This document shows, piece by piece, positions 12,189 to 64,000 of a stretch of 64,000 nucleotides of DNA. The stretch comes from Psammoneis japonica (taxonomy: Eukaryota). Under the pieces are notes generated by a model, which searched no databases, was not told the DNA's origin, and saw only the letters and a program-made list of their open reading frames with translations. The DNA lies in contig QPGO01000086.1 of the NCBI GenBank assembly GCA_008632985.1, positions 1-64,000 of the forward strand. The letters run 5' to 3'. Numbering within the stretch: the first letter of the stretch is position 1; each line of letters starts with the position of its first letter. A program made the position numbers and the translations under genes.

Positions 12189-14188
12189 ATGACTGACGTC
12201 TGTCTATCAACCCTTGTCAATCGGTTCGAGGTTCGAGCACTCGAGCACATCCTGCCCACAATGGCGGCAATGGCTGAGGATTGCTGCGATTTCCTTGACC
12301 AAGCCGCAAATGATGGCTGTGTTCTCAACAGTGACTTGAGCTCAGAAGCTGTGAACATCAAGCAACCATCACGCAAGGAGAAAAAAGAACGAACCGAGTG
12401 GAGCAACAAATTTCAGGAAATTTTTGGCAACTGCTCGGACCCGAACTTGGCAGCGCCGTCCGTTGACTCGACGAAAGAACTTTTGGAGCAGCATCTGATT
12501 CCCCCTCTTTTGAAAAACTGGTGACATCACCACATGCACCAGGGTCAATGAATCGAGGAGCGGTTGCATTTTAGTTCCTCTCCTCCTCCTCCGTCTCTCA
12601 AGAAATGTCCCTGTGGAAAGGATTCGTCGGGAAGGCTTCCCCAAGCATGAACCGAGTGCACAAGAGAGTTGAAACCAGTTGTGTCCACTGTCTTCTTGGA
12701 CAGTTTGAAATCCGGTGACAGTTCCTGCTGGTCAGAAGCATCAGAGGAAAATCACCTGATGATGGGCCTTCAGTTTCTAAGAAGAGCCCAGCTGCTTCAG
12801 ACGCGTTCCAGCTCTGGGTGGGACCTCGCACTGCTGAACTGTGACATTGACAGTTTTTTGGATCACACCGCATGTCATGCACACATGCATCTACGTGACT
12901 TTGGTGGAATTTTGCATCATTTTGTAGTGCAATTGTTGGGCGATCCATTCATCAACTTTTCATGTTTTTTCTTCTGCGGCATTTGCAAATGTCTTAAGAA
13001 TGGCGCAGGGCAGGCGGATCACCGAAAACTTCGAGTGTGGACAGGCACAAATGTGCTGCAAACTTGGCCGCTTATTTGATGTTGAATGTAAAAACACACA
13101 TTGACCAAACACTCATGATGCAGAGCTCGCACGTAGAATTCTGCGAGCGGAATGTCACAAAACGTCCCACCCAGGACTGGAACCCGTCTTCATTCCATTG
13201 CAAATGAATCATCCCCAGTTGGCAAGCCAGACTTTTGCTTGAAAAATCATGATGGGAAAGTCTCAGCAATTGGGGAAAGCAAGAGCACCCACAACTTGTT
13301 GCTGCCCCATGACACAAGCACTCTGCTGGAAAAATGTGCAGATGCCTGTGATGCGGTCGTGAGAGAAGAGAATTGTTTCCCGTGCAAATGATGAATGGTT
13401 GCATGTCGCTCACCCACTTGGGCAATTGTTGCTGCTGGGATGCATGGTCAACAATGGATGTCATTGCTGTGCTTTGACCAGTGCAACCTGTGCTTGCTTT
13501 GTTTGGATCCCAGGTCAGGAGAACACTGCAAAGGTCAATGTCCCTGAGCCGTGCTTTGTGGGAGAGGCCAACTGCTTTCGTGCATGGGCGCACCTCCACT
13601 CTTTGGGCTGCAGACAGACCAACAAATTAATGCCTCCAATCAGAGCTGCCAAACAGTGGCTGACAACATTGAAAGGCAGCCTGACCCCCCAACCAGAAAA
13701 CACAAGAAAACCTCACACAAAGGCAAGGCGTGAGGGAGGCAATGAAGGTGATGGTGGTCGGTTGACATCAAAACAAAGGAAAAAGTCCACCAGCCTTGAC
13801 CCACCCAAAGCCAACTTTTGTGACCTTGAATTTGGTGACAAACTTGGCAATTCAATGTGGGAAGAGATGGCCCTGGACTTTTTGAGAAAGAAATGTTGGC
13901 CCATGCCACAACTGGGGTCTGCTTGTGCCGGAACCTTTGTTTCTTGCAGAGGCTGCCTCAGGGGGAGTGATGTTTTTGGGGCTGCAGCTTGGCAGGTCAT
14001 CTCTTTGTGACAAAGAAGGTGAAACTGATGACCTGCTGTGCCAACAGCAGCAATCCATTCACAAGACTCTTGAAGACAAGCATGGAATTCGCCACAATGA
14101 TGTGAGAGGCAATGCCACAGTTGTCAAAACCAATGGTGCAGAGAGGCTGGCAACAATTGATTTTGAGGACTGGGAGAATGTGTTGTGA
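12189..14188 (+). pseudogene. Hypermutated gene for a restriction-endonuclease-like plus protein-kinase-like protein, interrupted by a MITE
   Basis: GKPDF...IGESK motif, HPLGQL..GCMVNNG...ALTSAT (Y->C), and C-terminal GIRHNDVR...IDFEDW kinase-like motifs. Contains stops and frameshifts. Confidence 0.55.
12800..13188. mobile_element. ~390-bp MITE, copy 1 (partly TA-mutated)
   Basis: TIRs GACGCGTTCCAGCTCTGGGTGGG and CCCACCCAGGACTGGAACCCGTC. 4-bp TSD TTCA at 12796-12799 and 13189-13192. Homologous to 43368-43763. Confidence 0.85.
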
Positions 14189-16972
14189 GGTTGCTGGCAT
14201 TTGGAAGCAGTTGACATGTGAACCCGAGACAAGCAATGCCAGAAAAAAGCAGACTTTGGACAGTCTGACAGCATCCATTTGAGGCAAAAAGTTGGCCAAT
14301 GCACACGCTAATTCCAGTGCAGAATTTCGAAAAATAATTGCCACAGAAATGACATTTGAAACCAGTTGATGCGCAAGCCCAAGACAGGCCATGCCACCGG
14401 AGAAGAAGACTTTGGACAATGTGACAGCAACTTGTGATGCGTCATTGTGCGTTTTGCTTTTTTTAGTCCATCACAGGCAAAAAGTCGACCAATGCACATG
14501 CCAACTCCAATGCAGAAATTCAAAAACACTTTTGCCACCCCATGGAAATTGGTGCATCAAGACAACTTCTTTGAAGAAGAAACCCAATGCCAAGAGCATC
14601 TCCTGCAACCTCTCCGCTTGACAGCCATGAGGTTTGTCAAATCCCCACCAGATGTGAACAACACCTCAAAACTGTCAAAGAAGACAACAAGAAACAAGCT
14701 CCCATTGAAAAAGGTGTCCGCAGTTTGGAACCTCAGGGCTGAATGAGTTCAAGCATGTGAGAAATGACTTGGCAATGTCAGAAGGCAAGTCTGGCAGAAA
14801 CAATTTTTTGTCCTCCAGCAAAGATCCTGCCAAGTGCACAGATTCACTCATGGGTGAGACATCAAGAAGTCCTTCAAATGCTTCCAGATCCACATCTTGC
14901 AGCAATTCTGTCCATTGGACAAAGTCCTTTGGCAGACCTTGTCTGACATTCAATTTCGGATCATCAGGTTCATCCCAATGAGACCAGAGTCAAGGCCATC
15001 TTGGTCAAAGTCCTGAAATGGTGCCACCAGTGGATGTGGCTCCAGGGCAGATGTGAGCGTTCAGCAACACCAAGATTCCACACTGAGCCCATGCTCTTAA
15101 AAAGGAAGCAATGCAGTCACACAGAATTGCTGGCCAATGCACCCCATCAAAGAAACGCACTCATGACAAAGAAACAACTGGCACAGATGCTGCACTGTGT
15201 CAAAGCTGGCTGCAGTTGTTCTTGTTGTTGTGGTGACCAGTGCAGCATTGAGTGTGAGAGATGCACAAGCCCTGCATCATGCAGTCCTTGCATTTGAAGC
15301 ACAGGCAACCCAGAGCTCAGCAGCCAACACCTTTGAATGCTTGTGATGCCAAAGTGACCAGCTGAAGAGTGGCAAGTTGCTCAGCTTCTTAAGCTCCACC
15401 TTGTTTGTGCAAAGCTGAGCAGAAGTCATCCAAAATGTCCAAAAACCATGGCCCTCATTTTGGCAGACTTGTTCTCATTGAAGTCATCATCAGAGTCAAG
15501 TGCACCGCACCCTTCAACAGAGAAAAAATGGAGAGCAACAGGGCAGGCAGACAAACATGTGGACTGCCAAGCAAAGTGAGCTTTGCACACCGCCTTTTCT
15601 TGTGTGGCAACAGACAGCTCTTCCTCCAAGCACTGATGCTGCAGATGAGGAGGGTGACCCACATGGACACTGGAGCCCATGGCAGGGTTGCCCAGGGGAG
15701 TTTTGCTGGCAAACTTGTGCCAGTTGTGTGCCAAGTTGTCTGCAAGGCAGAAGTCAGCAGCAGAGCAATGCAAAACATGCTCAACATTGGCAGCCTTGTC
15801 AACAACATTCAGGCATGACAAGTGAAGTGACAACTTTGTCAGAGGTGAAGAGTTGGCAACACTTGGGTGGGCCAAAACATCAACATGACATGCCGTCGGG
15901 GTCTTGTTGTGGAATGGAAAATCAAGAGCCCAGCCCTTTGCAGCAATGCAAGGGCCAGAGCTGGCTCCTTTTGAGGAAGAAGAAGTTTCAGCCATCTTGA
16001 TGCTTCCATCTCAGGTGTCTGGCACTGGTCTGCAACAAAGAGGGGGCTTGCAGGCCTGTTCCAGCCCCAGGTGGTGAGAAATCCATCATGCAAGAGGCCA
16101 AGCACTGAGCTCCTTCAAATTGGATCCTTTTGAAAATCAAAGGGTGAGAGCACACAAAAAAAACAAGTTTTGTGTGCACTCACCCTTCGGTTTGGGAAAA
16201 ACCCAATTTTGAAGGAGTTTGTTGCACTGAATGCAAAAACGGGCCAGCGATGGGAGCAAAGCCTGTGCACATTGTCCGGAGCTGAACAGGCAGCCTGCAA
16301 GCCTCTGATGCATGTCAGTGTGTTGCCCTCACAACAGCAATGCCAAACCTCAATGGACTGATGTTGCATCCTTGCCCACCTCTTCTCATGTGAAGAAAAT
16401 GGTTGTTTGCATCAGCAACATGGGCAACAGGGCAGCCCATGCTTTTCTCGTGTTGCTTTCAGCACCCCCGCAGCTCTTGTCCTCACGTGCTTTGTCACAT
16501 CAAAGACAAAGCAGCATGAGCGGGGACAAAAAGCAATTGAAAATGATGTGCCACATGACATCCACAGGGGTGACGATGGACACTTGTGGACACGTCAATT
16601 TTTCAGGGAAAAAAAACAAGTGCACCACGCCAAATGTGCGCAATTGCCAAACAAAGTTGTTCTGGCAACAGGCCAAACTTTGTCCATTCCCAGGATGTCA
16701 CAGAATGCCCAGACAGCAGCTGTGGCCATGCACTGTGTTCAGCTTGTTGGCTGCACACAAGCAAAGCAACTTTGGTGAACACTGGTGGCAATTTCAACAA
16801 CCTGGCAAAATGACAGGAGGGTGGCTGACAAGTGACAAATGTCCAAAGGATGCCCAAGAACAGTGCAGATGTCCTTCTCTCTTTGAGATTGAAAAATGCG
16901 GCAACAATTGTGATGCACAGCCCCGTTCAGGGAAGTGTTCCGTGCTCTCTCTAGAGTGGGGGGAAGAATGTC

Positions 16973-19900
16973 GGCAATTTTTTCATGTTCGTGGCCGGTT
17001 AAAGGAAAAGAGAAAAAAAGAGGGAATCAACCGTTGAACACACACACACAATTGACCATGCAACCATGGCCAGAGTTGCACTGGCTTCTTTTGATCCAGG
17101 GTGGTTGCTGCAGGTGCAAAGAGTGGGGCACATTGCAGTTGCAGGAGGGTGACAATGTGGCACTGAGTGTGTGCCACCAGGCTGAGCAGCCCAGCTTGGG
17201 TGTCAGCCAAGCCCTGCCAGGCCAGCTGCCCTGGCTCCAGCTGCTCTTCCCAGTGTGCGTGAGTTGTTGAAGGAGCACCACATTGACTCAAAGGCTGTGT
17301 TTTAAGTGGGGCAGAGAGAAAAAACTGTTGTCTTGGCTGGTGCTTGCTTCAGACCCTGCATCATGAGCGCAAGCTCCTCTTGAGAAATGAGCGAGAACAG
17401 CCATTTTTGGCGCCTCTCTTTGGTTGCCCACTTGGCATTGCCAACAAATCTTGAACCAAACTTCACTCACAGTTTCTTCACTCTTCAACCACAAAACCAG
17501 GTTCAACTTTTTGTTGGCTTCTTTGTGGCTGGGGTCACTGTTGCAGGCACAAATGGTGGGCACATGCCATGTGGCTGCTTGGCAACAAGAATGTGATGCC
17601 AAGCATGTGCTGCACACCAAGGAGCCAAGCAGCCCAGCCCAGCTTTGAATGGAGCCCCAGGACAGCAGCCAACTCTGGGTGATCTCAGCATGGTGTGCTT
17701 GTTTGGGCTGTGCTGCACTCACCCCACAGTGCTCTGTGTTGTGGTGGCTTGTTGTGCAAGCCGTGTGGCTGAAGAGCCAGCAGCCAGCCAGGGCCCATCT
17801 TGCAAAGGCCACAAATGTTGACCCTGTGCAAAGCTGTGTGAGGGGGCAGGCACAGGGATTTGCAATGATGGCTTCACAGCCATTGGCCCCAAGTTGGCAT
17901 TTGATTGGGAGCCAGTGCTGAGGGGCTGTGAAGTGTGGGGTTGGGAGCCCAGCCAGCTCGCACTCTCTTTGTTGTCACAAAGTGCTGCCACAGCTGTCTT
18001 TGCATTGCAACCAGCCAGGTGCGGTTGACCCCAAGTTGGCACTTGATTTGGAGTGACTGCCAAGGAGCTGTGAAGTGTGGGGTTGGGCAGTCCAGCCAGC
18101 TCACACTCTTTGCTGACAGCAGAAAGCACTGTCGCAGCTGTCCTTGCGCACACATGGCCAGAGCAGCCTTGGCACATCCTGCTGACAAAACTGACAAAGA
18201 CAGCGACTCTTGTGGTTGAGCCACTCAGCACGCAGGAGATCTGGGCACACTCCTGGGAAGTCAAACAGGAAGGAGGGCTGAGCATTGCCGCCAGTGCCAG
18301 GCACAAATGTCAGCTTGTCTTGAGAGAGATTCGAGCCCACACAGCCCCGCGTTGGGCATCTTTGCTGGCAAAATGGAAAGCATTCTTGAGCACATTCTGG
18401 CATGTGGGCAGCACTGTCACCAAGAGGGCTGCTCTGCAGAGGAAGAGGGAAATGGGCAACAACATTTTGCAAGAACTGTTTTGTGTCAATGGTCGGGTGG
18501 GATGTGGCAGCATCATCTGGACTTTGATGGAGCATTTGGCGGACAAAGCTTGAGCACAGAGAGTTGTCCACTCAAGCTCCACAAGTGGCACTTTCCAAAG
18601 GTGACACCACACATGGGCCATGTGTTCATGCATCAACATGCCTCAAGCTGCAAGTCACACAAAAAAACCACCACCAACCTTTCAGCCAACCACCATCATG
18701 GACAGAACAGGTCAAGAGGTTCAAAACAAGAGCGATTCATTGACTCTCTTCTGGTTCCATGCATTCAAGAGCTTCTTGTCCTTCTCAAATGTTTGTTGTG
18801 CATTGTTGTCTCTTTTAATTCAAGTGCAAAGAGGAGTCACTTTTCTTGTTTCCATCTCTTGAGATGTTGTTGGTTGTTGAGTGATGCAACTTTTGTTGTC
18901 ACATTTTTGGAAATGTTGGCAAACCCGATCACTGCTTGATTGTCAACCCATTTGCTGTTTTAAGTCTCCATGGCATGAAATGCCACAATTCCAGAGCCCT
19001 CAATTGTTTCATCAAACGCAGTGCTTTGAAACACGTCCAACATCAACTCGACTCAGTTGAAATCCCAGTTTGTGGGCGATGAAAAATCACGAATGTCAAA
19101 CAAATGGCTGCTTTCGACATCAAGATCCCCGAGTTCAATCCAAATGTGATGGTGCGCCTCACAGCTTGTGGCCATGACACACACAAGCATGCCTCATTGT
19201 CATCGCGTCGAGCACTCGTGTCGAAAATGCCGATAGATCAAAGTTCAGGAAAAGGATGGAATGCAAATTCATTTGTGAATTCATTGGTGGCATTGGCGCA
19301 ATGATGTTTGCGGCAGAAGCAATCTAAAATCCTCATTCATCATTGACATTTCTGTGTTGCTCAGATTTTGAAATCTGACCACTGCCGTCAAGCATTTAGC
19401 TGTCTTTGCATGGAAGTGGAAATGACACTTAACGATTTACACTGACCATTTGGCTTTCTTTGTGTCGAAGTGGAAATGACACTTAACGATTTACACTGAC
19501 CATTTGGCTTACTTTGGCTCGAAGTCAGACAAAGAGATTGGGCCATGGGCTTGTCGTCAACCAGCCACGAGCATGAAATCTTTACCGGAGTCGGCAATTT
19601 TTTCATGTTCGTGGCCGGTTAAAGGAAAAGAGAAAAAAAGAGGGGAATCAACCGTTGAACACACACACACAATTGACCATGCAACCATGGCCAGAGTTGC
19701 ACTGGCTTCTTTTGATCCAGGGTGGTTGCTGCAGGTGCAAAGAGTGGGGCACATTGCAGTTGCAGGAGGGTGACAATGTGGCACTGAGTGTGTGCCACCA
19801 GGCTGAGCAGCCCAGCTTGGGTGTCAGCCAAGCCCTGCCAGGCCAGCTGCCCTGGCTCCAGCTGCTCTTCCCAGTGTGCGTGAGTTGTTGAAGGAGCACC

Positions 19901-22900
19901 ACATTGACTCAAAGGCTGTGTTTTAAGTGGGGCAGAGAGAAAAAACTGTTGTCTTGGCTGGTGCTTGCTTCAGACCCTGCATCATGAGCGCAAGCTCCTC
20001 TTGAGAAATGAGCGAGAATGGCCATTTTTGGCGCCTCTCTTTGGTTGCCCACTTGGCATTGCCAACAAATCTTGAACCAAACTTCACTCACAGTTTCTTC
20101 ACTCTTCAACCACAAAACCAGGTTCAACTTTTTGTTGGCTTCTTTGTGGCTGGGGTCACTGTTGCAGGCACAAATGGTGGGCACATGCCATGTGGCTGCT
20201 TGGCAACAAGAGTGTGATGCCAAGCATGTGCTGCACACCAAGGAGCCAAGCAGCCCAGCCCAGCTTTGAATGGAGCCCCAGGACAGCAGCCAACTCTGGG
20301 TGATCTCAGCATGGTGTGCTTGTTTGGGCTGTGCTGCACTCACCCCACAGTGCTCTGTGTTGTGGTGGCTTGTTGTGCAAGCCGTGTGGCTGAAGAGCCA
20401 GCAGCCAGCCAGGGCCCATCTTGCAAAGGCCACAAATGTTGACCCTGTGCAAAGCTGTGTGAGGGGCAGGCACAGGGATTTGCAATGATGGCTTCACAGC
20501 CATTGGCCCCAAGTTGGCATTTGATTGGGATCCAGTGCTGAGGGGCTGTGAAGTGTGGGGTTGGGAGCCCAGCCAGCTCGCACTCTCTTTGTTGTCACAA
20601 AGTGCTGCCACAGCTGTCTTTGCATTGCAGCCAGCCAGGTGCGGTTGACCCCAAGTTGGCACTTGATTTGGAGTGACTGCCAAGGAGCTGTGAAGTGTGG
20701 GGTTGGGCAGTCCAGCCAGCTCACACTCTTTGCTGACAGCAGAAAGCACTGTCGCAGCTGTCCTTGCGCACACATGGCCAGAGCAGCCTTGGCACATCCT
20801 GCTGACAAAACTGACAAAGACAGCGACTCTTGTGGTTGAGCCACTCAGCACGCAGGAGATCTGGGCACACTCCTGGGAAGTCAAACAGGAAGGAGGGCTG
20901 AGCATTGCCGCCAGTGCCAGGCACAAATGTCAGCTTGTCTTGAGAGAGATTCGAGCCCACACAGCCCCGCGTTGGGCATCTTTGCTGGCAAAATGGAAAG
21001 CATTCTTGAGCACATTCTGGCATGTGGGCAGCACTGTCACCAAGAGGGCTGCTCTGCAGAGGAAGAGGGAAATGGGCAACAACATTTTGCAAGAACTGTT
21101 TTGTGTCAATGGTCGGGTGGGATGTGGCAGCATCATCTGGACTTTGATGGAGCATTTGGCGGACAAAGCTTGAGCACAGAGAGTTGTCCACTCAAGCTCC
21201 ACAAGTGGCACTTTCCAAAGGTGACACCACACATGGGCCATGTGTTCATGCATCAACATGCCTCAAGCTGCAAGTCACACAAAAAAACCACCACCAACCT
21301 TTCAGCCAACCACCATCATGGACAGAACAGGTCAAGAGGTTCAAAACAAGAGCGATTCATTGACTCTCTTCTGGTTCCATGCATTCAAGAGCTTCTTGTC
21401 CTTCTCAAATGTTTGTTGTGCATTGTTGTCTCTTTTAATTCAAGTGCAAAGAGGAGTCACTTTTCTTGTTTCCATCTCTTGAGATGTTGTTGGTTGTTGA
21501 GTGATGCAACTTTTGTTGTCACATTTTTGGAAATGTTGGCAAACCCGATCACTGCTTGATTGTCAACCCATTTGCTGTTTTAAGTCTCCATGGCATAAAA
21601 TGCCATAATTCCAGAGCCCTCAATTGTTTCATCAAACGCAGTGCTTTGAAACACGTCCAACATCAACTCGACTCAGTTGAAATCCCAGTTTGTGGGCGAT
21701 GAAAAATCACGAATGTCAAACAAATGGCTACTTTCGACATCAAGATCCCCGAGTTCAATCCAAATGTGACGGTACGCCTCACAGCTTATGGCCATGACAC
21801 ATACAAGCATGCCTCATTGTCATCGCGTCGAGCACTCGTATCGAAAATGCCGATAGATCAAAGTTCAGGAAAAGGATGGAATACAAATTCATTTGTGAAT
21901 TCATTAGTGGCATTGGCGTAATGATATTTACGGCAGAAGCAATCTAAAATCCTTATTCATCATTGACATTTCTGTATTGCTCAGATTTTGAAATCTGACC
22001 ACTACCGTTAAGCATTTAGCTGTCTTTGTATGGAAGTGGAAATGACACTTAACGATTTACACTAACCATTTAGCTTTCTTTGTGTCGAAGTGGAAATGAC
22101 ACTTAACGATTTACACTAACCATTTAGCTTACTTTGGCTCGAAGTCAGACAAAGAGATTGGGCTATGGGCTTGTCGTTAACCAGCCACGAGCATGAAATC
22201 TTTACCATTTCGGCAATTTTTTCATGTTCGTGGCCGGTTAAAGGAAAAGAGAAAAAAAGAGGGGAATCAACCGTTGAACACACACACACAATTGACCATG
22301 CAACCATGGCCAGAGTTGCACTGGCTTCTTTTGATCCAGGGTGGTTGCTGCAGGTGCAAAGAGTGGGGCACATTGCAGTTGCAGGAGGGTGACAATGTGG
22401 CACTGAGTGTGTGCCACCAGGCTGAGCAGCCCAGCTTGGGTGTCAGCCAAGCCCTGCCAGGCCAGCTGCCCTGGCTCCAGCTGCTCTTCCCAGTGTGCGT
22501 GAGTTGTTGAAGGAGCACCACATTGACTCAAAGGCTGTGTTTTAAGTGGGGCAGAGAGAAAAAACTGTTGTCTTGGCTGGTGCTTGCTTCAGACCCTGCA
22601 TCATGAGCGCAAGCTCCTCTTGAGAAATGAGCGAGAATGGCCATTTTTGGCGCCTCTCTTTGGTTGCCCACTTGGCATTGCCAACAAATCTTGAACCAAA
22701 CTTCACTCACAGTTTCTTCACTCTTCAACCACAAAACCAGGTTCAACTTTTTGTTGGCTTCTTTGTGGCTGGGGTCACTGTTGCAGGCACAAATGGTGGG
22801 CACATGCCATGTGGCTGCTTGGCAACAAGAATGTGATGCCAAGCATGTGCTGCACACCAAGGAGCCAAGCAGCCCAGCCCAGCTTTGAATGGAGCCCCAG

Positions 22901-25900
22901 GACAGCAGCCAACTCTGGGTGATCTCAGCATGGTGTGCTTGTTTGGGCTGTGCTGCACTCACCCCACAGTGCTCTGTGTTGTGGTGGCTTGTTGTGCAAG
23001 CCGTGTGGCTGAAGAGCCAGCAGCCAGCCAGGGCCCATCTTGCAAAGGCCACAAATGTTGACCCTGTGCAAAGCTGTGTGAGGGGCAGGCACAGGGATTT
23101 GCAATGATGGCTTCACAGCCATTGGCCCCAAGTTGGCATTTGATTGGGATCCAGTGCTGAGGGGCTGTGAAGTGTGGGGTTGGGAGCCCAGCCAGCTCGC
23201 ACTCTCTTTGTTGTCACAAAGTGCTGCCACAGCTGTCTTTGCATTGCAACCAGCCAGGTGCGGTTGACCCCAAGTTGGCACTTGATTTGGAGTGACTGCC
23301 AAGGAGCTGTGAAGTGTGGGGTTGGGCAGTCCAGCCAGCTCACACTCTTTGCTGACAGCAGAAAGCACTGTCGCAGCTGTCCTTGCGCACACATGGCCAG
23401 AGCAGCCTTGGCACATCCTGCTGACAAAACTGACAAAGACAGCGACTCTTGTGGTTGAGCCACTCAGCACGCAGGAGATCTGGGCACACTCCTGGGAAGT
23501 CAAACAGGAAGGAGGGCTGAGCATTGCCGCCAGTGCCAGGCACAAATGTCAGCTTGTCTTGAGAGAGATTCGAGCCCACACAGCCCCGCGTTGGGCATCT
23601 TTGCTGGCAAAATGGAAAGCATTCTTGAGCACATTCTGGCATGTGGGCAGCACTGTCACCAAGAGGGCTGCTCTGCAGAGGAAGAGGGAAATGGGCAACA
23701 ACATTTTGCAAGAACTGTTTTGTGTCAATGGTCGGGTGGGATGTGGCAGCATTGTCTGGACTTTGATGGAGCATTTGGCGGACAAAGCTTGAGCACAGAG
23801 AGTTGTCCACTCAAGCTCCACAAGTGGCACTTTCCAAAGGTGACACCACACATGGGCCATGTGTTCATGCATCAACATGCCTCAAGCTGCAAGTCACACA
23901 AAAAAACCACCACCAACCTTTCAGCCAACCACCATCATGGACAGAACAGGTCAAGAGGTTCAAAACAAGAGCGATTCATTGACTCTCTTCTGGTTCCATG
24001 CATTCAAGAGCTTCTTGTCCTTCTCAAATGTTTGTTGTGCATTGTTGTCTCTTTTAATTCAAGTGCAAAGAGGAGTCACTTTTCTTGTTTCCATCTCTTG
24101 AGATGTTGTTGGTTGTTGAGTGATGCAACTTTTGTTGTCACATTTTTGGAAATGTTGGCAAACCCGATCACTGCTTGATTGTCAACCCATTTGCTGTTTT
24201 AAGTCTCCATGGCATAAAATGCCATAATTCCAGAGCCCTCAATTGTTTCATCAAACGCAGTGCTTTGAAACACGTCCAACATCAACTCGACTCAGTTGAA
24301 ATCCCAGTTTGTGGGCGATGAAAAATCACGAATGTCAAACAAATGGCTACTTTCGACATCAAGATCCCCGAGTTCAATCCAAATGTGACGGTACGCCTCA
24401 CAGCTTATGGCCATGACACATACAAGCATGCCTCATTGTCATCGCGTCGAGCACTCGTATCGAAAATGCCGATAGATCAAAGTTCAGGAAAAGGATGGAA
24501 TACAAATTCATTTGTGAATTCATTAGTGGCATTGGCGTAATGATATTTACGGCAGAAGCAATCTAAAATCCTTATTCATCATTGACATTTCTGTATTGCT
24601 CAGATTTTGAAATCTGACCACTACCGTTAAGCATTTAGCTGTCTTTGTATGGAAGTGGAAATGACACTTAACGATTTACACTAACCATTTAGCTTTCTTT
24701 GTGTCGAAGTGGAAATGACACTTAACGATTTACACTAACCATTTAGCTTACTTTGGCTCGAAGTCAGACAAAGAGATTGGGCTATGGGCTTGTCGTTAAC
24801 CAGCCACGAGCATGAAATCTTTACCATTTTCGGCAATTTTTTCATGTTCGTGGCCGGTTAAAGGAAAAGAGAAAAAAAGAGGGGAATCAACCGTTGAACA
24901 CACACACACAATTGACCATGCAACCATGGCCAGAGTTGCACTGGCTTCTTTTGATCCAGGGTGGTTGCTGCAGGTGCAAAGAGTGGGGCACATTGCAGTT
25001 GCAGGAGGGTGACAATGTGGCACTGAGTGTGTGCCACCAGGCTGAGCAGCCCAGCTTGGGTGTCAGCCAAGCCCTGCCAGGCCAGCTGCCCTGGCTCCAG
25101 CTGCTCTTCCCAGTGTGCGTGAGTTGTTGAAGGAGCACCACATTGACTCAAAGGCTGTGTTTTAAGTGGGGCAGAGAGAAAAAACTGTTGTCTTGGCTGG
25201 TGCTTGCTTCAGACCCTGCATCATGAGCGCAAGCTCCTCTTGAGAAATGAGCGAGAATGGCCATTTTTGGCGCCTCTCTTTGGTTGCCCACTTGGCATTG
25301 CCAACAAATCTTGAACCAAACTTCACTCACAGTTTCTTCACTCTTCAACCACAAAACCAGGTTCAACTTTTTGTTGGCTTCTTTGTGGCTGGGGTCACTG
25401 TTGCAGGCACAAATGGTGGGCACATGCCATGTGGCTGCTTGGCAACAAGAATGTGATGCCAAGCATGTGCTGCACACCAAGGAGCCAAGCAGCCCAGCCC
25501 AGCTTTGAATGGAGCCCCAGGACAGCAGCCAACTCTGGGTGATCTCAGCATGGTGTGCTTGTTTGGGCTGTGCTGCACTCACCCCACAGTGCTCTGTGTT
25601 GTGGTGGCTTGTTGTGCAAGCCGTGTGGCTGAAGAGCCAGCAGCCAGCCAGGGCCCATCTTGCAAAGGCCACAAATGTTGACCCTGTGCAAAGCTGTGTG
25701 AGGGGGCAGGCACAGGGATTTGCAATGATGGCTTCACAGCCATTGGCCCCAAGTTGGCATTTGATTGGGATCCAGTGCTGAGGGGCTGTGAAGTGTGGGG
25801 TTGGGAGCCCAGCCAGCTCGCACTCTCTTTGTTGTCACAAAGTGCTGCCACAGCTGTCTTTGCATTGCAACCAGCCAGGTGCGGTTGACCCCAAGTTGGC

Positions 25901-46393: not shown

Positions 46394-46402
46394 GCTCTGC
46401 GG

Positions 46403-52681: not shown

Positions 52682-53434
52682 ATGAAGTTTGCCTTGGCCT
52701 CGATCGTGAGTGTTTGGTGCTTTGCATCTGCCAGCGGTGCTGACAGTCCAAAGGACAAAGAGATGCAGGAATCTCTTCTCGACAGGCTCTTGTGTGGCTG
52801 TGGAGTGAACCGTGGAGCCTGCTGCTTCAACCATGGACCCAAAGAGTGCCTCGTCCTCAGTCCTGGAAACTGCCACAGGAGGGGAGGCAACTTTTTAGGA
52901 GCTGGCACAGTGTGTGCACCCTGCAACAGATGCACATGCCCCAAGCATCCTGCCCCCAAGCCAACACCATCACATCCCAAGCATCCCACCCCCAAGCTGA
53001 TGCCATGCCCAGCCCCAAGCCCACACCACACCCAACCCACATGCCTTGCAAGGACTGCTGTCCTGCCCCCAAGCCGGTGCCACACCCAACCCCCAAGCCA
53101 GACTGCTGTCCTGCCCCAAAGCCGGTTGAAGTGTGAGAACAATTGTGCTGACATCAAGAAGAAACTCTGTGAGCACCATGGAGGTGACTTTGCTGGCAAG
53201 GGCATTCTTTGCAGCAAGAACACTTGCCCAGCCACTTGCGGTGCCTGCTGCAAGAAGGATGGCTCTTGCATTGTGGTCAGGAAGAAGTTTTGCAAAAACA
53301 TCAAGGGACACTTTCTTGGATTTGGTGCCATCTGCAAGAAGCACATCTGCCCCAAGCACCCTTCACATGCAGCCAAAAGTGCCAGCAAAAACTGTGGTTC
53401 CAACTCTGAAACAGTGGCAAAAGCAGACATTTGA
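52682..53434 (+). pseudogene. Secreted Cys-rich (GACC-repeat) and Pro-rich protein gene, hypermutated
   Basis: Signal peptide MKFALASIV, GACC...C...GGxFLGxGTxC repeats, and (H/C)PTPKP-type repeats probably derived from YPTPKP. No Tyr. Confidence 0.6.
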
Positions 53435-53523
53435 AAACAATGGCGTTCATGCTTTTTGTTGTGATTGATGGTTGCAGGCATTCACTTGAGAAATGAGCTC
53501 ATGATGAAAGAGCCAAGCAGTGG

Positions 53524-55180
53524 GTGAAATTGGAAAAACAGCTCCAGAAACTGTGCAAAGAGGCATGTGAACACGATCAATCAGAAGTGGAGAAATGCTG
53601 GCAGCGACTGGTGCATCCACAAGGGGACATCATTCTGGAGGTTGTCAATTGGCTCAAGAGTGACAACACTCCATTCATGCAGTGTCCATTTGAAGCAGAA
53701 GCTCAGCATGCAAAGCTGCAGAAGGATGGTCTTGTTCAATGCACCATGTCAGAGGATGGGGATGTCTTTGGGTGTGGCACAAGCAAGTGGACAATGAATG
53801 TGAGACATGAAAGCAGCAAGTGCTGCACCCTTGATTCCGCTGTTGTTTGCACAAGAGAGAGTGCCGGTGGAGGCAGATGGAGCAGTTTTTTGTCGGTCAC
53901 ACCAGCTTTCAGGGGTTGCGACTGCAACGTGAAACTGTGCCGGCTTGACTTTAAGAAAGAAATGGACGCACATGCATCCAGCAATGAAAAGCACACATTT
54001 TTGCTTGACATCAAGTGCCGCCACAAATGGCCACCCAAAGCAGCTGGGGAGAGGTTGTCTCTGAAGCCTGCAGCGGGATTTGCTGCAGATGCTGAACAAA
54101 CAATCAACATGTTCAAGGCACACCCAATTTTCTTTCTGACACCAACAGAGACTGACAATGGCGCTTGTCTGAGCAACAGTGTGAGTCATGCTGTGGGTTC
54201 ACTCACCCCTTTTTGAATGATGTCAATGCTTGCATTGTGCCAGCCCTGATCACTGGGGGGTGCAAATTGGATTTTCCTTGTCACCGGTGGCTGTGTTGTC
54301 TGCAAACAGAATCCCCTTGGACAAGTGTGATGACATGATGACAGCGTCACTCTGGGGAAGGTCAGGATGTCCATTGGCAGAGCAAGCAATGCCATGTCAG
54401 TGCCATGACAATCGGTGCCTTGTTCAGCACAGAACAGCTGCAAATTTTGATCCAGAGGATGGTGGAGTTCCTCCTGAGCACTGTTGCGACAAAGTGTTTT
54501 TGTTTCTTGAAAGCTGACCAAAGTCTTCATCCGTTGCATGCTGGGCAACATCAGCCAAGACAAGCAGAGAGTTGTTGAGGGAGACAAAGCATCTTCTTGA
54601 GGTTGGGAGCAGGCCAGGGATCCGAGGTCTAAAACCAAAGGCACTGTCTGAGTTTTGGAAAGAAACAGGCTTGTTTTTGATGAATCTGACATTGTCTGTG
54701 AGAGATGGCAAAATGCTGATTTTTGATGATGCAGATGTGATGAGCAGTGTTCAACCACTGTGTGAAACCAATGATGACATCATCGCCAATGCAATCTTTG
54801 CCAAAATGAGAAACGGTGTCCAACATCATGCATGCCGGCACATGGACAGGGGGCATTGTGACATTGATGCACTTGGCTGCACCCATGTCATGTTCAAAGA
54901 GAGCCAGGAGCCTGGACTCACACTTCAAATTTTAGTCACACCATCTCAAAAAGCAAGTCCATGCTGAGCGCACCATGCATTCAACCATCTTGGCCAATTT
55001 TGCAAGTGTCCTGCAAGTCATTGTGCATGCCCTGCTGTGAAAGGCTGTTCTCACTTTCTTGGATGCTTGGGCATTTTTCATTTGATCCAAGTCAACAAGG
55101 GTTGGATGAAAGAAGAGCTGAAAGCAGCATGTCCACCACCAGTCAAGTCAATTCAGAGTCTGCCGGTTCCCTGGGAAGCT
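53524..55180 (+). pseudogene. XPG/Exo1-family nuclease-like region followed by a SWIM-like zinc finger
   Basis: CPFEAEAQ..L...GLV...SEDGDVFG.G and GCDC (from GCDY) match XPG-I motifs. CACPAVKGCSH at 55022-55054. Confidence 0.65.
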
Positions 55181-55187
55181 GGTCATT

Positions 55188-58329: not shown

Positions 58330-61250
58330 GCACACTTTCATCTCCAGTCACTGGAAGACGAGCATTCTTTTTGGCATCTTTGTGAAGCCCCCTCTGGCTG
58401 TGGCATTTGCAAGTGCAATTTGTTCCTGGTGATTTTGCAGTGACCCCCAAAACAAAAGGGTGGGTGAAATTTTTTGTGATGGCAACAAGAGGCTTGACAA
58501 GACATCTGGGCTCCTTTCGTGCACAAGTGCTCACAGAGCAGCTGCACAAAACATGTGCTCCTGGAGGATGATCCTGCACAAACTGCTGGAGCTGCACTTG
58601 CAGTGCTGAGTTGCTTCTGTTGTTGTGAGCAGCTGTGACAATGCCTGCAGCAGTTGTGTTGCTGTGGCCATTGTTGTGATTTGCTGCAATGGTGCCGGCA
58701 GCAGCGGCTGTGGGTCCCAACGTCATGCTTCCACGTGTCATCACAACCCCCCCCATTTTTTGCCAAAATGCATTTCCAGCCGACTAACATCACACCAATG
58801 CAAAGTTCCCAATGACTTTTGGGGTCGCAAGCAGAGGGTTGTGTTGGTTGTAGAGCCATGACTGAAAACAGTCCCTCGCACTTTCACGTGTGATGAAGGT
58901 GCTCCGCGAAACGTCAGCTCCATTTTCAAATGCCCAACACCATGAACAATGCATGCCCAATCTGTTCTCGCAAGACATTTTTTTAAAGGGTGGGAGACTG
59001 ACAATGCTCATGTCTTGTGCATTTTGTGGCTCTAGCGGGGATCAAAGTCTGGCTGATTCTGCCAAAAATGTTGAGTCGAGTGGGTCATGCGGGATTCAAG
59101 ACACGTGACTCGCTGTACGATGAAGTGTTCTCGACACTGAGATTAGATGACAACATCATCACAAGACCTGTTTCATGGCTGTGCTCCATTCTCTAATCCA
59201 TGGCTGGCCTCGTGACAACCACATTTGACCTCTTTCATGCCACAGACAGGCCAAGCAATCCACAAAAACTCATCACAAGCAACACACTCCTGTTTTCAGA
59301 TTTGACATTTTTGTGTTTTTGCGATCAATCTAGAGCACACACAAGCAAGGGGGCACTTCCATTGCACAAATTTGTTCTTCTGTAGGAGAGCATCATCAAT
59401 GTGTGACTTTGTCAACATTGTTTGACTGCTTCTTTTCAACAGTGCGCCAACTTCACTCTGCATTTTTGCTCCAAAATCCGACCCACGCCCCACCCTCTCC
59501 CACTCAAAAACACTGGCTGATCGCATTGCAGTTGCTTCATCAAAGTCTTGAAAAATGTTCCTCTTGTCATTGGCATTGCCAAAACGGGTTTGACGATGGG
59601 ACTGCGACATTGGATTCGTCGATGAGCTCACACGACGATTGACATTGTGAAAATTGGCTGCGTCTGCATGACAGTTGAGTGAGACAACAAGTGGCAAGAC
59701 TTTGGCACAATGACAACACCATTTCGATTCTGTGTTGCTTGCCTTCACATGTCCGCCGGCTTTTGCTCTCAGCGGGTGTCGAAAATCCAGCGAATGAGTG
59801 GTTGATGAAGACTCGGCACGTGACATGGCGTCACGAATGACTGAATCGGTGTGTTTGTCAACAGCTCGCCACAAAATCAAAATCATGGAGAACGCATTTA
59901 GACACCTGTCCAACAGATGCTGATTGATTGTGCGTCAAATGCGCTCTCGCAGAATCGAAGGTTTAGACAACTTTCTCAGTGTCGCAATCATCGCCATCGT
60001 CGGTGCGAGATTTGATCAAATTCCCCGTGATCGACAGCGCCGCGGTGACAGTCTGTGCGCTCATCAGCAGCACGCCTGCCACGCCAGTTTGGATTTGCTC
60101 AAGGGTTGGGACCCACAGCAGCTGCATTGCTGGGCAAGTCATCCATCTTTTCTCATGGCAACAACACCTGCATGGCTGCAGCAGAATCCTCAGTGATTTT
60201 TCCCAGCAGGTGTGTGTTTCTGAATGTGCCAGCACAAAAAAATGACAAAGATTAAAGTGCACATGAGATGCCATCCGGTGGCACATCTTGGCAGCACCGC
60301 TGCTCAGCAAGCAATGCCTTGACACTGCTCAGACATCCATGCTCTTCCTGTCTCATGGTTTGCACTGTTCTAACACTTGTGCAGCAGCTGCATTTTTCAA
60401 AGGAGTGGGTTCAAAAGAGCAAAAAACAGGGACTTGTGAAAGGCTTGAGTTGAGTTGGGATGATGAGATTGAAAATTGTGGGCCGCTGTTGGTGAGCTCA
60501 ATGAATTTTGAAGTGGCCAAAGACAGCACAATGTTTTTAGAACATGCCAGCCAGCCTTTCTAAATTTAGTGTGAGGTGGGTTGTCTTTGTAAAAAAACAT
60601 GTTTTGAGAAACTTGTGATGTCAAATTTTTGAGCTGCTCCAAAGTCCATGCACTCCATGTGGTGGAAAAGACCAGTTGTGGTTGGCTGACAAATGTTCGA
60701 AATGAGGATCTTCACAAAGATCAACAATTTACAAGCTCACAGTGTTGCACGTCAATGGCACCCAGTTCAATGATGGCTGCTGGTGTGAAGAGGCTGAGCT
60801 GCGGTTTGATTTGATCAACACCCTTTCTTTCACATTCACACACACAAAGCTGGCTGAAACATGAAGGGATGGTTGGTTGACCCCCCTTTTGGGTTCATGC
60901 ATGGGGGGTTGCAAAGATCCTTTGTTTTTTGGTGCCCTGGTTTGGAGAATGCCTTGTGGTCAGGACCAAGTTTCTTGCCCAAGCAACCAGGAAAACTTTG
61001 CAAGAAATGCATGGGATGAAGCTTGAAAGAAGGCACTCAACCAAGCAAACCTTTCATTGTGGCAAGGAGCAGATGTTCTTGCTTTTGTCATTCCAACATG
61101 CCAGCATTTTTTGTCCTGAGTGCAGCAGTGTTTTGTCTGACACTGGACGCTGCCTGCCACTTGTGCCATTCTTTGTGCAAGCAAAAGTTTCCACCTGCTT
61201 CTCAGTGGGAAAATTCACCCACAACAACCATGGCCTGTTGGCCAACAAAC
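58330..61250. repeat. Unclassified dispersed repeat B, copy 2, interrupted by ~1.4 kb of other sequence (~58700-60100)
   Basis: Two blocks colinear with 35490-36920. Confidence 0.6.
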
Positions 61251-61729
61251 CCACTCTGCAGAATGGAAAAACTCTGATTGTTTTTGCCAACCACTGCTTT
61301 TTGTTCAGTCATTTTTTCAACTGCAAAGCAAGCCCAACAATGGGCAGCTTGTTGAGTTTCATTTTTGGCATGCCAGCACAAACCATGTGGGACTCTGCTT
61401 GCTTGATTCTGTGCAGCTCCACATGGCAATCTTGAAGATCCATCAAACCAGCTTGTGAGAAACCACAACGGCACAACAACAGGCTGCGATTTGAAGTTTC
61501 TTCCAATTGGATGTTGGCTGCAGCATTGTTTCCACATGTGACAATGTCTCAATGTTCTGGCTTGCATGCAAAACCCACTCATTTGATTTTCATCAACATT
61601 TTCAATGGTTGTTGTTTGATCACAGCTGGTTTCCGACAAGTGTTGCCACTGGCAGTGGCACTGTCATTGCCTGGATTTCTCAGCACAAATGCTCTGACCA
61701 TCTGTTCTGAAGCAGTGCGAATGGTCCAA

Positions 61730-62410
61730 CTGTCCTTCTGAAGCAGCACAAGCAAAGGCTGCAATCAGCCTTTTTTGGCAACACAAAGGCCCCCAATCAC
61801 CACAAACAATGCAGCAATGGAAAGGCTTCAACTGCCCTTCCTGAAGTGGCACAAAGGCCCCAGCAGCTGTTCTTCTGCAGTGGCACAAATGTCCCAGCCA
61901 TCCTTCTGCAGCAGTGCAAAGGCTCCCAACCACCGCAAGTGGAAGCAATGCAAAGACTCCAACCACCACAAGTGCCGGCAGCCCAAGGCTCCAACCATCC
62001 TTTCTGAAGCAGTGCAAATGCCCCAGCCGCCCTTCTGTGGCAGCAGCACAAATGCCCCAGCCATCCTTCTGCGGCAGCACAAAGGCTCCCAACCACCGCA
62101 AGTGGCAGCAATGCAAAGACTCAAACCATCACAAGTGGCAGCAGCACCAAGCCTCCAACCATCCTTTCTGAAGCAGTGCAAAGGCTCCAATGGTCTGTCT
62201 GCAGCAGTGCAAATGCTCCAACCATCCTTTGGCAGTGTTGCATGGGCACTCTCAACCAACACAAGTGGCCGCAATGCAAAGACTCCAACTGCCACAAGTG
62301 GCAGCAGTGCAAAGGCTCCAACCGTCCTGTCTGAAGCAGCACAAAGGCTCCAACTGTCCTTCTGCATCAGCACAAAGACTCCAACCACCACAAGGGTCAG
62401 CAGTGCAAAG
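61730..62410. repeat. Degenerate minisatellite of ~31-33-bp units
   Basis: Interspersed variants AAGGCTCCAACCATCCTTCTG(C/A)AGCAGTGCA and AAAGACTCCAACCACCACAAGTGGCAGCA. Confidence 0.8.
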
Positions 62411-64000
62411 GTGCCGCATGCCATTCATGCATCCACAGAAACATGGCCATGAGAACAAGAGCAAGTTGACAGGCCAACCGTGTGTGATCCACGCATCAAC
62501 AAAACTCCCGCGGTTCACACAAAATGGGACATTCTCCTGAATGCACAACTGTGGGAAAGCACTGCTGCTGCCGCTGCATCATGATCATCATGAAAGTGCC
62601 ATTTTGGCATCGCGCACATTTTCAAATGAACCAATGGACAACCACCATTTCAGCGTCATCCTGCTTGAAGTTGCGCACGAGGCATTGTGCCGAGTTTCTG
62701 CTGGCACACCAAAAATGAACTTGACAAGCTGTCCATTGCTTTTTTGTCAGAGAATTGTTGTCCACTGTTCAAAGCCTTCTTTCCACACAGCTGGGCTTTG
62801 CATTTCCACATGAGGAGGAAGCTCTGGCACTGCACACATGGGGTCATCCCAGACTGCATTGCTGGTGCACCAAACATCTGTGAAGACACTTCCTTGGCCA
62901 CAGCCTGTGATGCAGTTGTCTGAGCAAGGTAAAAGATGTGGCTGCAGCTGAGTGTGATGATGTGCTTTTTTCACACTGTGCTCATCCAGTGCTCTTCTTT
63001 GTGCTTGAGCCCCAGTTGGGTGCTGGCAAGTTCCCATGTGGAGCTGAAGGCACTCTCATGCCAGTGCACAGCAGATTTGACCACGGATCCCACATTTTGG
63101 ATTTGGCAAGCCACACTCACAACATCACACAAATGTCATTTTTGTGCACACTTTGGCTCGCAAGTGTGTGTAGCTGGAGCACTCCTTCAGAGAGCCAAAA
63201 GCTCTTGTTGAGCTCAGTTTGAAGGATCTGTTGATGGAAGAATGGCAGTGAACAAGAACAAGGCTGAGGACAGAGAAGTGGATCCACAGCAGAAAAGAAA
63301 GTGGGCCAGAGAGATGAGCTGCCATCTGGCCTGCTGTGCCAGAGCTCTTTCCACAAAGCATGGCAGCGCGCACAGAAGCTGGGTGCACACGTTCCCACAG
63401 GTCATGTGAGTGGCGCTGGCACAGCGACACTCTAGCCAGAGAGTCAAACGCTTTCTCTGAAAGTTGAGGATGCGTGATTGCCTGATGATGGCTGTGCTGA
63501 TGTGCCTTCGCTCTTCCCCTGCTCCGATCCACCATTTTCGAAACGAAAACGCTCTAAAAAAAATTCGAAATTTTGACACGTACGCCGTGACGATTCATTT
63601 TTTACTATCGATTTTATTGTACTTTTCAAACATGCATGTGCTACAACCCTTACGTTTATAACGTCGAGCACTGTATTCTTCCGAGGTTGCTTCGTTATTG
63701 CATGCATTCCCGTATGTTTGGCAACTGAAGTCCCGCAAACTAACGCATGCTCGTTGCTTCTCTTTCTTCATATCTTTTGGCCGCAAAAATGAATCCTTAC
63801 CTTCACATCCGAAATCCAAACATTGCGCACATCACTCTGGCTGCATACATAGGGCCCTGCCGGCCTGCCAGCACAGTACTATTGTTTCTTTCAATGTGCA
63901 CCTTGAATTTTTTTCTTGCCCTTCATAGATTTTTTTCGTGACGAAGCACGAGAGTTGCTTTTGGTTGCGCTCCGTCATAATCTTCGATGCGGTATGGCAA

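Follow-up and report, generated by a model that had tools for sequence, protein, structure and literature searches.

What has removed almost every TpA step from some 50 kb of a diatom contig, when the genes next to it have a normal TpA content? The question is raised by a 64,000-nucleotide stretch of the Psammoneis japonica assembly GCA_008632985.1 (contig QPGO01000086.1, positions 1 to 64,000; "the window" below), in which a TpA-poor domain at positions 12206 to 63554, rich in transposon relics, adjoins gene-bearing DNA. The answer that we consider likely is that a context-specific mutator, most likely of the same kind as that described in the chlorarachniophyte Bigelowiella natans, has converted TpA to TpG or CpA in situ in a silenced, transposon-derived domain of a diatom genome. 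A first-pass annotation of the window had put forward domain-wide TpA hypermutation as a candidate undescribed genome-defence system, with a repeat- or chromatin-targeted activity behind it.

The window is one contig stretch, and dinucleotide observed/expected ratios (o/e) were computed along it in 2-kb and 500-bp bins. In the 2-kb bins, the TpA o/e is 0.52 to 0.71 at 1 to 12 kb and 0.70 at 30 to 32 kb, and it is 0.02 to 0.28 in all remaining bins from 12 to 64 kb; in these TA-poor bins, TpG and CpA rise to an o/e of 1.4 to 2.05. Many of the 500-bp bins lack TA entirely, and the state changes abruptly along the window. For totals, the domain was taken as 12206 to 63554 minus a normal-composition island (29442 to 32033), three unmutated segments of a tandem array, one miniature inverted-repeat transposable element (MITE)-like insertion and a run of N, which leaves 46,232 bp. 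These hold 156 TA steps, whereas the flank rate would predict approximately 1,971 (o/e 0.055 versus 0.585). The longest TA-free run is 2,200 bp; in the flank, consecutive TA steps lie at most 205 bp apart. TG (4,883; o/e 1.70) and CA (4,962; o/e 1.71) are equally frequent, and hence both strands are affected equally. The GC content is 0.503 versus 0.473 in the flanks, with AA/TT unchanged (o/e 1.25 versus 1.19 to 1.23). The TpA loss is confirmed as real and lies far beyond chance. In these respects, the first-pass annotation described the locus correctly: TpA is nearly absent and TG and CA are abundant over transposon-rich DNA, on both strands, with normal TA in the adjoining genes.

The edges of the domain are sharp, to roughly 100 to 350 bp. 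On the left, the list of TA positions gives the final normal TA at 12205 and the following one at 12572; on the right, the edge falls between 63433 and 63555. The gene flank (1 to 12205) provides an internal control (TA o/e 0.585 and CG o/e 0.995, flanks together), and the domain boundary lies about 400 bp upstream of the open reading frame (ORF) of its intact EMP70 gene. Inside the domain, the normal-composition island at 29442 to 32033 (plus strand; TA o/e 0.667, CG o/e 0.944) consists of a MATH-BTB gene together with its upstream region. The gene has an intact ORF at 30702 to 31763 (plus strand) with the Pfam domains BTB, MATH_2 and BACK, and the boundaries around it lie about 1.26 kb upstream and 270 bp downstream. 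As to an RNA gene that could act as a barrier at the islands, ARAGORN returned no tRNA genes and Rfam no matches at gathering score.

The coding potential of the domain is altered in the same sense. Among stop-to-stop ORFs of at least 200 aa, 32 of the 37 in the domain have 0.0% Tyr and the other five 0.2 to 0.5% (the 37 include non-coding frames and repeated array copies), compared with 0.7 to 6.2% in 10 flank ORFs and 2.0% in the island gene. Cys and His are raised, and the near-lack of Tyr that had been noted at first sight is borne out. Long open frames that overlap one another also abound on both strands of the domain, e.g., five ORFs of 284 to 469 aa at 39.3 to 42.2 kb, because TAA and TAG have been erased and only TGA is left.

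The direction and the context of the change can be read from a tandem array at 17013 to 30100 (plus strand), which has five units of about 2,620 bp (spacing 2619 to 2621 bp, identity 99 to 100%). Each unit is composed of an old TA-free part and a segment of approximately 650 bp, here called S, that has a normal composition in units 2 to 5. Units 2 to 5 are 99.2 to 100% alike, and unit 1 is 98.7% like them. Relative to the consensus of units 2 to 5, unit 1 has 23 of 36 TA sites converted (15 to TG and 8 to CA) and only one of 47 CG sites; beyond these conversions, it differs by two TG/CA doubles, a single transversion and a small number of indels. All 23 conversions fall within 18976 to 19558, i.e., in the unit 1 copy of segment S. 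When this recently hypermutated tract (18976 to 19559, 584 bp) is compared with unit 2 and both strands are scored, A→G changes are seen at 23 of 62 adenines in TpA, 0 of 118 in ApA, 0 of 92 in CpA and 0 of 78 in GpA, which amounts to none at 288 non-TpA adenines. Apart from these, the tract differs only by one C→T at a CpG, so that 23 of the 24 differences are A→G/T→C, and the tract has neither transversions nor indels. The requirement for a 5′ T is absolute: A→G occurs at TpA only.

Segment S of unit 2 (21581 to 22252) has kept its TAs, as have the homologous segments at approximately 24200 to 24872 and 26821 to 27493. The S segments of units 2 to 4 have a TA o/e of 0.57 and a CG o/e of 0.98, which match the flanks, and the unit 5 copy is contiguous with the normal island. 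TA is thus the ancestral state in S and, as a consequence, unit 1 was mutated after the duplication. The unit 1 version is the abnormal, domain-like one (TA o/e 0.17 in the bin 19001 to 19500). The polarised excess of TA to TG/CA changes that the first-pass annotation had named as a deciding observation is accordingly present, and it is found in a tract of promoter-like unique DNA within a tandem duplication, with no retroelement.

The bases on either side of the TpA modulate its fate (R, purine; Y, pyrimidine). In the recent tract, R-TA-Y was converted at 7 of 7 sites, R-TA-R at 3 of 4, Y-TA-Y at 6 of 10 and Y-TA-R at 7 of 15. In the saturated parts of the domain, the survivors are Y-TA-R, with TTAA at approximately 39% of its normal density, TTAG at 35%, CTAA at 17% and CTAG at 12%, and ATAT, GTAT, CTAT and ATAC are at 0%. 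The strand-symmetrised order of trinucleotide loss is TAT > TAC > TAG > TAA. TG and CA outcomes interleave in the recent tract (12 runs among 23 changes, about 11.4 being expected by chance), and no strand-coordinated clustering is seen. A hint of the rate is given by the 23 changes at 36 TA sites relative to one single-base substitution outside Y-R steps in the unit of about 2.6 kb; the counts are very small, but they suggest that the per-site rate at TpA may exceed the background by a factor of the order of 10^3. Two substitutions are private to unit 2 (19634 to 22252), and both are A→G at A-A-Y (GAATG→GAGTG and CAACC→CAGCC); these could reflect a weak secondary target of the mutator, or chance.

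A degenerate Copia retrotransposon with long terminal repeats (LTRs) at 38661 to 46614 (plus strand) provides a second comparison. Its TA o/e is 0.0 to 0.1 with a CG o/e of 0.6 to 1.0, and the Pfam domains gag_pre-integrase (within 41688 to 43382), SH3_retrovirus (within 43669 to 44217) and RVT_2 (within 44221 to 45762) are recognizable on the plus strand. The two LTRs of one element are identical at insertion. Here, the 5′ LTR (38661 to 38869, plus strand) and its 3′ partner (46403 to 46614) differ at 20 of 209 aligned bases, and hence the changes were made after insertion. All 20 are transitions, with no transversions, and 18 of them lie in changes from one Y-R step to another (CG/CA, CG/TG, TA/TG, TA/CA or TG/CA), including six sites with CG versus CA or TG. 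TG and CA are again balanced in the Copia part of the domain (1,081 versus 1,086).

The reverse transcriptase (RT) ORF of this element was aligned to 177 stretches that matched it in 150 library representatives, after removal of the low-Tyr rows P0128 and P0152, and columns were scored only if they had at least 40 residues and a consensus of at least 60%. All four conserved Tyr columns are changed, three to Cys and one to His, whereas 82 of the 97 other conserved columns are unchanged; the alignment places the Tyr of the catalytic YxDD motif among the residues that have become Cys or His. Further changes include L→P (three), I→T, R→C and R→Q, which are of the type that loss of TA and CG would produce. 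The median Tyr content of the 150 homologues is 3.0%; 148 of them have at least 1% and one is below 0.5%. A relic of an XPG/FEN-type nuclease gene at 53431 to 54177 (plus strand; Pfam XPG_I), which lies in a part of the domain depleted in both TA and CpG, has a similar pattern. In a tblastn comparison, it is 36% identical to protein P0271 over 249 aa with one in-frame stop, and of the nine aligned Tyr of P0271, three are Cys and two are His in the relic. The XPG domain is atypical of transposons, and one longer relative of the XPG-like ORF was found.

Older copies within the domain retain a trace of the same history. A double adjacent transition from TG to CA, or the reverse, rarely arises from ordinary substitution. 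The Copia LTR pair nevertheless has four such doubles, compared with a mean of 0.21 and a maximum of 3 in 1,000 column shuffles. In three pairs of old unclassified repeat relics (33867 to 36740, with partners at 47733 to 48785, 58335 to 58708 and 60116 to 61073; 78 to 81% identity), the numbers are 22, 30 and 11, relative to shuffled means of 2.03, 2.73 and 0.78 and maxima of 9, 10 and 5 (1,000 shuffles). The excess implies that ancestral TA or CG sites were resolved independently in each copy. Collectively, array unit 1, the LTR pair, the TG/CA doubles and the Tyr to Cys or His changes in the RT show an in situ, DNA-level and TpA-specific A:T→G:C process that acted on both strands, was bounded by gene-bearing DNA and wrecked the elements, in agreement with what the first-pass annotation had supposed.

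TpA is not the only step that has been lost. CpG loss went unmentioned in the first-pass annotation, but CpG is depleted as well, with an o/e of 0.397 in the domain. It is 0.05 to 0.4 at approximately 13.3 to 38 kb and at 52 to 63.5 kb, and just 0.6 to 0.9 at 38.5 to 51.5 kb; no bin combines strong CpG loss with normal TpA, and the CpG loss is therefore nested within the TpA loss. At flank-plus-island rates, approximately 1,815 TA and 1,320 CG steps were lost (3,135 together), and approximately 3,203 TG and CA steps were gained. The books balance if both palindromic Y-R steps, TpA and CpG, went to TpG/CpA by transitions. The two losses are, however, separable: the recent tract has 23 TA changes versus a single CG change, and the Copia element has lost its TA with much of its CG retained (see above). 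CpG loss is a second, slower process with the same products that is far advanced only in the older relics, with a CG o/e of 0.05 to 0.3 in the older parts of the domain, and its pattern reads as the ordinary signature of 5-methylcytosine (5mC) deamination in methylated transposons. That one dual-specificity deaminase complex makes both the TpA and the CpG conversions is, in our view, improbable.

Could the missing TpA steps be a product of sequencing, base calling or polishing, e.g., if modified bases in heterochromatin were misread? Modified-base miscalls are known for some long-read callers, and the platform of the assembly and of the public run used here (X1) is not on record. Run X1 contains 91% of sampled 31-mers of positions 8000 to 17000, and its Logan contigs were compared with the window. 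Contigs at a k-mer depth of 34 to 54 have no differences to the TA-free stretches at 13307 to 14892, 15259 to 15736 and 16192 to 16871, and the neighboring gene is matched equally well. Such exact agreement in contigs built on exact 31-mers is not expected of noisy long reads, and the reads themselves must then carry TG and CA. A check of the reads for TA at these sites had been proposed as a way to overturn the first-pass proposal; this accurate-read run instead returns the TA-free sequence exactly. In addition, strand-specific miscalls at palindromic TA and CG sites should give mixed calls, including TA from CG, and would not remove both cleanly; the near-identical array units are distinguished only by the TA sites of one 584-bp tract; and the LTR and copy comparisons reveal fixed, copy-specific states. 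The same signature is also present in two metagenome assemblies, and in B. natans it was measured with Illumina reads (Mettrop et al., bioRxiv 10.64898/2026.01.13.699255). Together, these points make an artefact very improbable.

Among the 40 of 207 differing places that are listed for X1 and the window, 10 of the 19 domain differences are from one Y-R step to another, with TG or CA in the window versus TA, CG or the opposite CA/TG in other copies. At 14879 to 15227, X1 has two contigs of equal depth (36.7 and 36.2), one of which is identical to the window while the other departs from it at 33 bases and by 13 gap positions; this variant must represent a second, very divergent haplotype or else a paralogue in the TA-poor domain. 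Variant contigs of the gene flank have far fewer differing places. A second run (X2), the type of which was guessed, covers the coding part of EMP70 (9866 to 11934) at a depth of 154 and has almost nothing at 12.2 to 17 kb; it resembles a transcript library and was not used as evidence.

If the changes are real, at what level and by which chemistry were they made? ADAR-type enzymes that edit A to I in RNA prefer a 5′ U, a point made in the Discussion of the preprint (bioRxiv 10.64898/2026.01.13.699255), and the clearest coding element in the window is a retrotransposon, which invites the idea that an RNA was edited before reverse transcription. Editing of one strand would give TG only, yet TG equals CA in the domain as well as in the Copia part; the LTRs differ from each other as a result of changes after insertion; and the recent tract is not derived from a retroelement. 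Imported or natively TA-free elements are at odds with the normal composition of the relatives (the Tyr content of the 150 RT homologues given above, and normal TA at 78 of 80 metagenome loci described below). We regard this pair of explanations as exceedingly unlikely. Native TA-free composition was, as a candidate of its own, excluded by the polarity tests. It might also be asked whether the array was read in the wrong direction, with unit 1 being the original and a RIP-like process (repeat-induced point mutation) having made TAs from CpA/TpG in an ancestor of units 2 to 5, as the split of four versus one gives no direction if these four units descend from a single copy. The flank-like composition of S in units 2 to 5, the continuity of the unit 5 copy with the island and the abnormal composition of the unit 1 version all speak for the opposite order, and the Tyr to Cys or His changes and the mass balance independently point the same way, which leaves the inverted polarity a next to negligible chance.

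Error-prone patch repair by a Y-family polymerase in silent chromatin, comparable to the role of Pol eta in somatic hypermutation, was one of the two candidates of the first-pass annotation. It would account for the confinement to transitions at A:T pairs in local tracts, and Pol eta errors favor A→G at WA motifs (W, A or T). WA includes ApA, though, which is untouched in the recent tract (0 of 118 versus 23 of 62 for TpA) and unchanged in its AA/TT ratio over the domain, and the tract is without accompanying transversions or indels. This candidate is consequently disfavored and very unlikely to be right. A route through the paired thymine, i.e., TET/JBP-type oxidation of the T in TpA to 5-hydroxymethyl- or 5-formyluracil, or another modification of T, that mispairs with G and results in T→C, is the main rival where the chemistry is concerned. 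It alters the same base pair and accounts equally well for the strict TpA context, for the influence of the flanking bases and for the occurrence of both TpG and CpA. Dinoflagellate 5-hydroxymethyluracil is concentrated at TpA, and 5-formyluracil causes A:T→G:C mutations. The accurate-read run returns plain G and C, i.e., fixed mutations and not modified bases. Moreover, the only published account of the signature proposes adenine deamination, with an ADAT2-like enzyme as a hypothetical candidate (bioRxiv 10.64898/2026.01.13.699255). On balance, we consider the thymine route unlikely.

The favored explanation, a TpA-specific mutator acting in place on silenced DNA, has points that weigh against it or limit its reach. 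The evidence comes from one 64-kb window; adenine deamination and a route through the paired thymine are indistinguishable by sequence; and a role in defence would follow from the targets that are hit. Run X1 may be the assembly's own data, with its platform not on record, and is in that sense not fully independent. At one site, units 1 and 2 of the array have CA and units 3 to 5 have TG, which is unlike a simple order of duplication and needs conversion or unequal exchange between units; CA-versus-TG differences between the units imply that some TA or CG sites were still being resolved as the array grew. Finally, pieces with normal TA lie inside the domain (S of units 2 to 4, and a MITE-like insertion at 43368 to 43763), and a process that is simply constitutive throughout the domain would not leave them. 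We infer that recent arrival of these pieces, together with episodic action, explains why they were spared.

With these points in mind, the mutator that we favor would operate as follows. It would turn the A:T pair of 5′-TpA-3′ into G:C, giving TpG or CpA depending on the strand struck, and would do so on DNA after insertion or duplication. Adenine would probably be deaminated to hypoxanthine, which pairs as G, by an ADAT2/TadA-like or other deaminase. The first-pass annotation had linked the activity to repeat or heterochromatin domains. Repetition as such is not the trigger, since DNA at single-copy depth is TA-free (34 to 57 in run X1) while four near-identical tandem copies (units 2 to 5, 99.8 to 100% alike) keep their TAs in S; the "repeat" part of that proposal is accordingly doubtful, and targeting by chromatin state, in episodes, would be more in keeping with the observations. 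The outcome would be an irreversible inactivation of mobile DNA through destruction of Tyr codons, YxDD motifs and TA-containing signals. The decay of CpG to TpG/CpA is a second, slower process. A wider version of this model, in which a chromatin-guided DNA editor of diatoms deaminates the adenine of TpA in double-stranded DNA, is common to diatoms and Rhizaria and hence ancient in the Stramenopila–Alveolata–Rhizaria group, and permanently disarms transposons and integrated viruses alongside cytosine methylation, such that every TpA and CpG of silenced DNA drifts to TpG/CpA, is in our view slightly less likely than not.

The remaining contents of the window can be described briefly. The MITE-like insertion at 43368 to 43763 lies within the Copia element, has inverted termini of about 27 nt and a normal composition (27 TA in 396 bp, TA o/e 0.82), and so was inserted after the Copia element was mutated or was exempt. 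A TA-poor member of the same family is present at 12800 to 13189 (6 TA, 40 TG and 40 CA in 390 bp). The two are alike at the termini only (58% identity overall), their alignment is uninformative for polarity, and blastn found no second copy of the MITE-like element in the window. In run X1, the family reaches an enormous depth, with a summed k-mer depth of up to 6.7e4 at 12816 to 13116 versus approximately 35 to 54 for single-copy sequence. With regard to the element classes of the first-pass annotation, a Copia LTR element, MITE-like elements and the XPG-type nuclease relic are confirmed. The non-LTR and DNA-transposon identities stay unconfirmed: neither a non-LTR reverse transcriptase nor a DDE transposase was found in the 24 + 132 ORFs scanned with Pfam, where heavy mutation would mask such domains. 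Among these, the 132 further domain ORFs of at least 100 aa gave three Pfam matches, of which only SH3_retrovirus is credible, the two others being weak and under cut-offs. The ESM Atlas had no usable match for the ORF at 48919 to 49968 (minus strand). Diverged tandem repeats of about 163 bp (75 to 79% identity) occupy 61683 to 62387, in a part depleted in TA and CpG, and an assembly gap of 111 N at 33756 to 33866 has TA-free sequence on either side.

In the gene flank, the EMP70/TM9SF gene (9900 to 11807, minus strand) was assigned by Pfam, and its homologues include proteins of named diatoms. No database protein exceeds 75% identity to it, and the named hits include Epithemia, Mayamaea, Fistulifera, Cylindrotheca, Nitzschia and Skeletonema. 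Further flank ORFs have Pfam matches to CRAL_TRIO-like, nucleotide-diphospho-sugar transferase and Stc1 domains. In fission yeast, Stc1 connects RNA interference to the complex of the histone H3 lysine 9 methyltransferase. The Stc1-domain ORF (4534 to 5907, plus strand; E = 7e-14) lies 6 kb from the edge of the domain, is Cys-rich and has internal tandem repeats of 168 to 192 nt (4417 to 5498); that an Stc1-type silencing gene lies beside a silenced domain may be a coincidence.

If the interpretation given here is correct, eukaryotes would possess, besides RIP, a second class of genome defence by mutation, namely a natural TpA-specific A:T→G:C mutator directed at silent mobile DNA, the chemistry of which is the opposite. 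The diatom case would extend its known range beyond a single chlorarachniophyte culture to one of the major groups of phytoplankton, and its targets from viral inserts to transposons. One mutated array unit beside four unmutated sisters constitutes a natural experiment that fixes the motif, the flank rule and the strand behavior, and it offers a defined target for the enzyme search. There are practical consequences for annotation: TA-free relics evade domain searches (3 of 132 ORFs have any Pfam match), and the loss of TAA and TAG, the two stop codons with a TA step, gives them misleadingly long ORFs that gene finders could take for genes. Such domains would also distort estimates of mutation rate and GC bias. 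For base editing, a natural adenine deaminase of double-stranded DNA, should one be at work here, would be directly relevant.

How does this process relate to systems that are already known? With fungal RIP, it shares dense, context-specific transitions on both strands, irreversible inactivation, and aberrant blocks beside normal genes. RIP, however, makes C→T changes mostly at CpA, creates TpA and lowers GC, whereas TpA is destroyed here and GC is raised; RIP also needs duplication, whereas DNA at single-copy depth is hit in the window and the near-identical tandem copies are spared. A RID-type DNMT is needed for RIP, which takes place before meiosis. Fungal RIP as such was rejected as a candidate on account of the opposite chemistry and the lack of dependence on duplication. 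The process has in common with the cytosine deaminases APOBEC3/AID, which hypermutate retroelements and immunoglobulin genes, that clustered, context-specific transitions are directed against mobile or foreign nucleic acid, but those enzymes target C and leave strand-coordinated changes on single-stranded intermediates, compared with the A target and the interleaved TG and CA outcomes seen here. There is also an enzymatic likeness to TadA and ADAT2-3, which act on A34 of tRNA, to ADAR, which acts on dsRNA, and to engineered TadA adenine base editors, which have in common an A→I(G) outcome and a 5′ U or T beside the edited A. In tRNA, A34 is preceded by U33, and ADAR prefers a 5′ U and a 3′ G; the preference for a 3′ T or C in the window is unlike that of ADAR. 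To our knowledge, no natural enzyme of the TadA/ADAT/ADAR family has been established to deaminate adenine in chromosomal double-stranded DNA at such a scale.

The CpG component resembles ordinary 5mC decay, with loss of CpG to TpG/CpA in transposon DNA. Such decay explains only about 1,320 of the approximately 3,135 lost Y-R steps and cannot remove TpA. Diatom transposons are reported to be methylated and to be demethylated upon loss of DNMT5a, and diatoms carry a RID-related DNMT4 to which no known role is assigned (PMC9998398). The two components can also be told apart outside the window. Among 80 metagenome loci with relatives of the Copia RT, two (L030 and L046) have the full signature, with a TA o/e of 0.04 and 0.09 and a CG o/e of 0.2, and the other 78 have a TA o/e of 0.38 to 0.88. 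Thirteen of these 78 are CpG-depleted (CG o/e 0.06 to 0.34) with normal TpA, e.g., L035, L075, L028, L056, L026 and L060, and by their composition appear to be cases of methylation-type decay without the TpA process. L030 (1 to 1789) and L046 (1 to 1861) come from two assemblies and are 96.5% alike; their differences are ordinary (31 transitions and 20 transversions), and the mutated state was therefore inherited by both. One of the 150 protein representatives, P0128, has no Tyr, with Tyr to His or Cys changes at the same conserved positions as the RT of the window, and a search with it returned 120 relatives. Among these Copia relatives, the TpA process is thus rare and lineage-restricted, and CpG decay is common.

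The closest match is the hypermutation of TpA to TpG/CpA in integrated giant-virus and virophage DNA of B. natans (Mettrop et al., bioRxiv 10.64898/2026.01.13.699255). Of the 302 nuclear mutations recorded in 15 mutation-accumulation lines, 231 were located in two silent integrated viral regions; 230 of these 231 were A→G/T→C, every one of them at TpA. They arose at about 6e-7 per site per generation, approximately 1,000-fold above background, and in some lines only. Reverse transcriptase and DDE domains are overrepresented in the TpA-poor coding sequences of that genome. As a candidate enzyme, an ADAT2-like deaminase is proposed there, and the word "diatom" does not occur in the preprint (bioRxiv 10.64898/2026.01.13.699255).

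As judged from that account, both cases consist almost only of A→G/T→C changes at TpA, with TpG or CpA as the outcome according to the strand, in bounded silent regions of foreign or mobile origin next to spared genes, and both have an episodic look. The diatom domain has every sequence-level trait of the B. natans type, i.e., transitions, TpA only, both strands, and bounded mobile-derived DNA. The differences are also informative. B. natans is a rhizarian, whereas the host here is a stramenopile; the diatom domain is near saturation, with a TA o/e of 0.055 compared with 0.45 in the B. natans viral region; and transposon relics with an embedded nuclease-gene relic take the place of a giant-virus insert. 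CpG loss accompanies TpA loss here, the rate is deduced from copies instead of being measured in mutation-accumulation lines, and the flank rule, R-TA-Y first and Y-TA-R last, has no counterpart in the preprint's abstract, Results or Discussion. The description of the system as "undescribed" has accordingly been overtaken with respect to its kind by the B. natans preprint, whereas for diatoms a full-text literature search found no report of TpA hypermutation. What is new is a saturated, transposon-targeting case in a diatom, of a kind of hypermutation that has been known from a chlorarachniophyte preprint since 2026.

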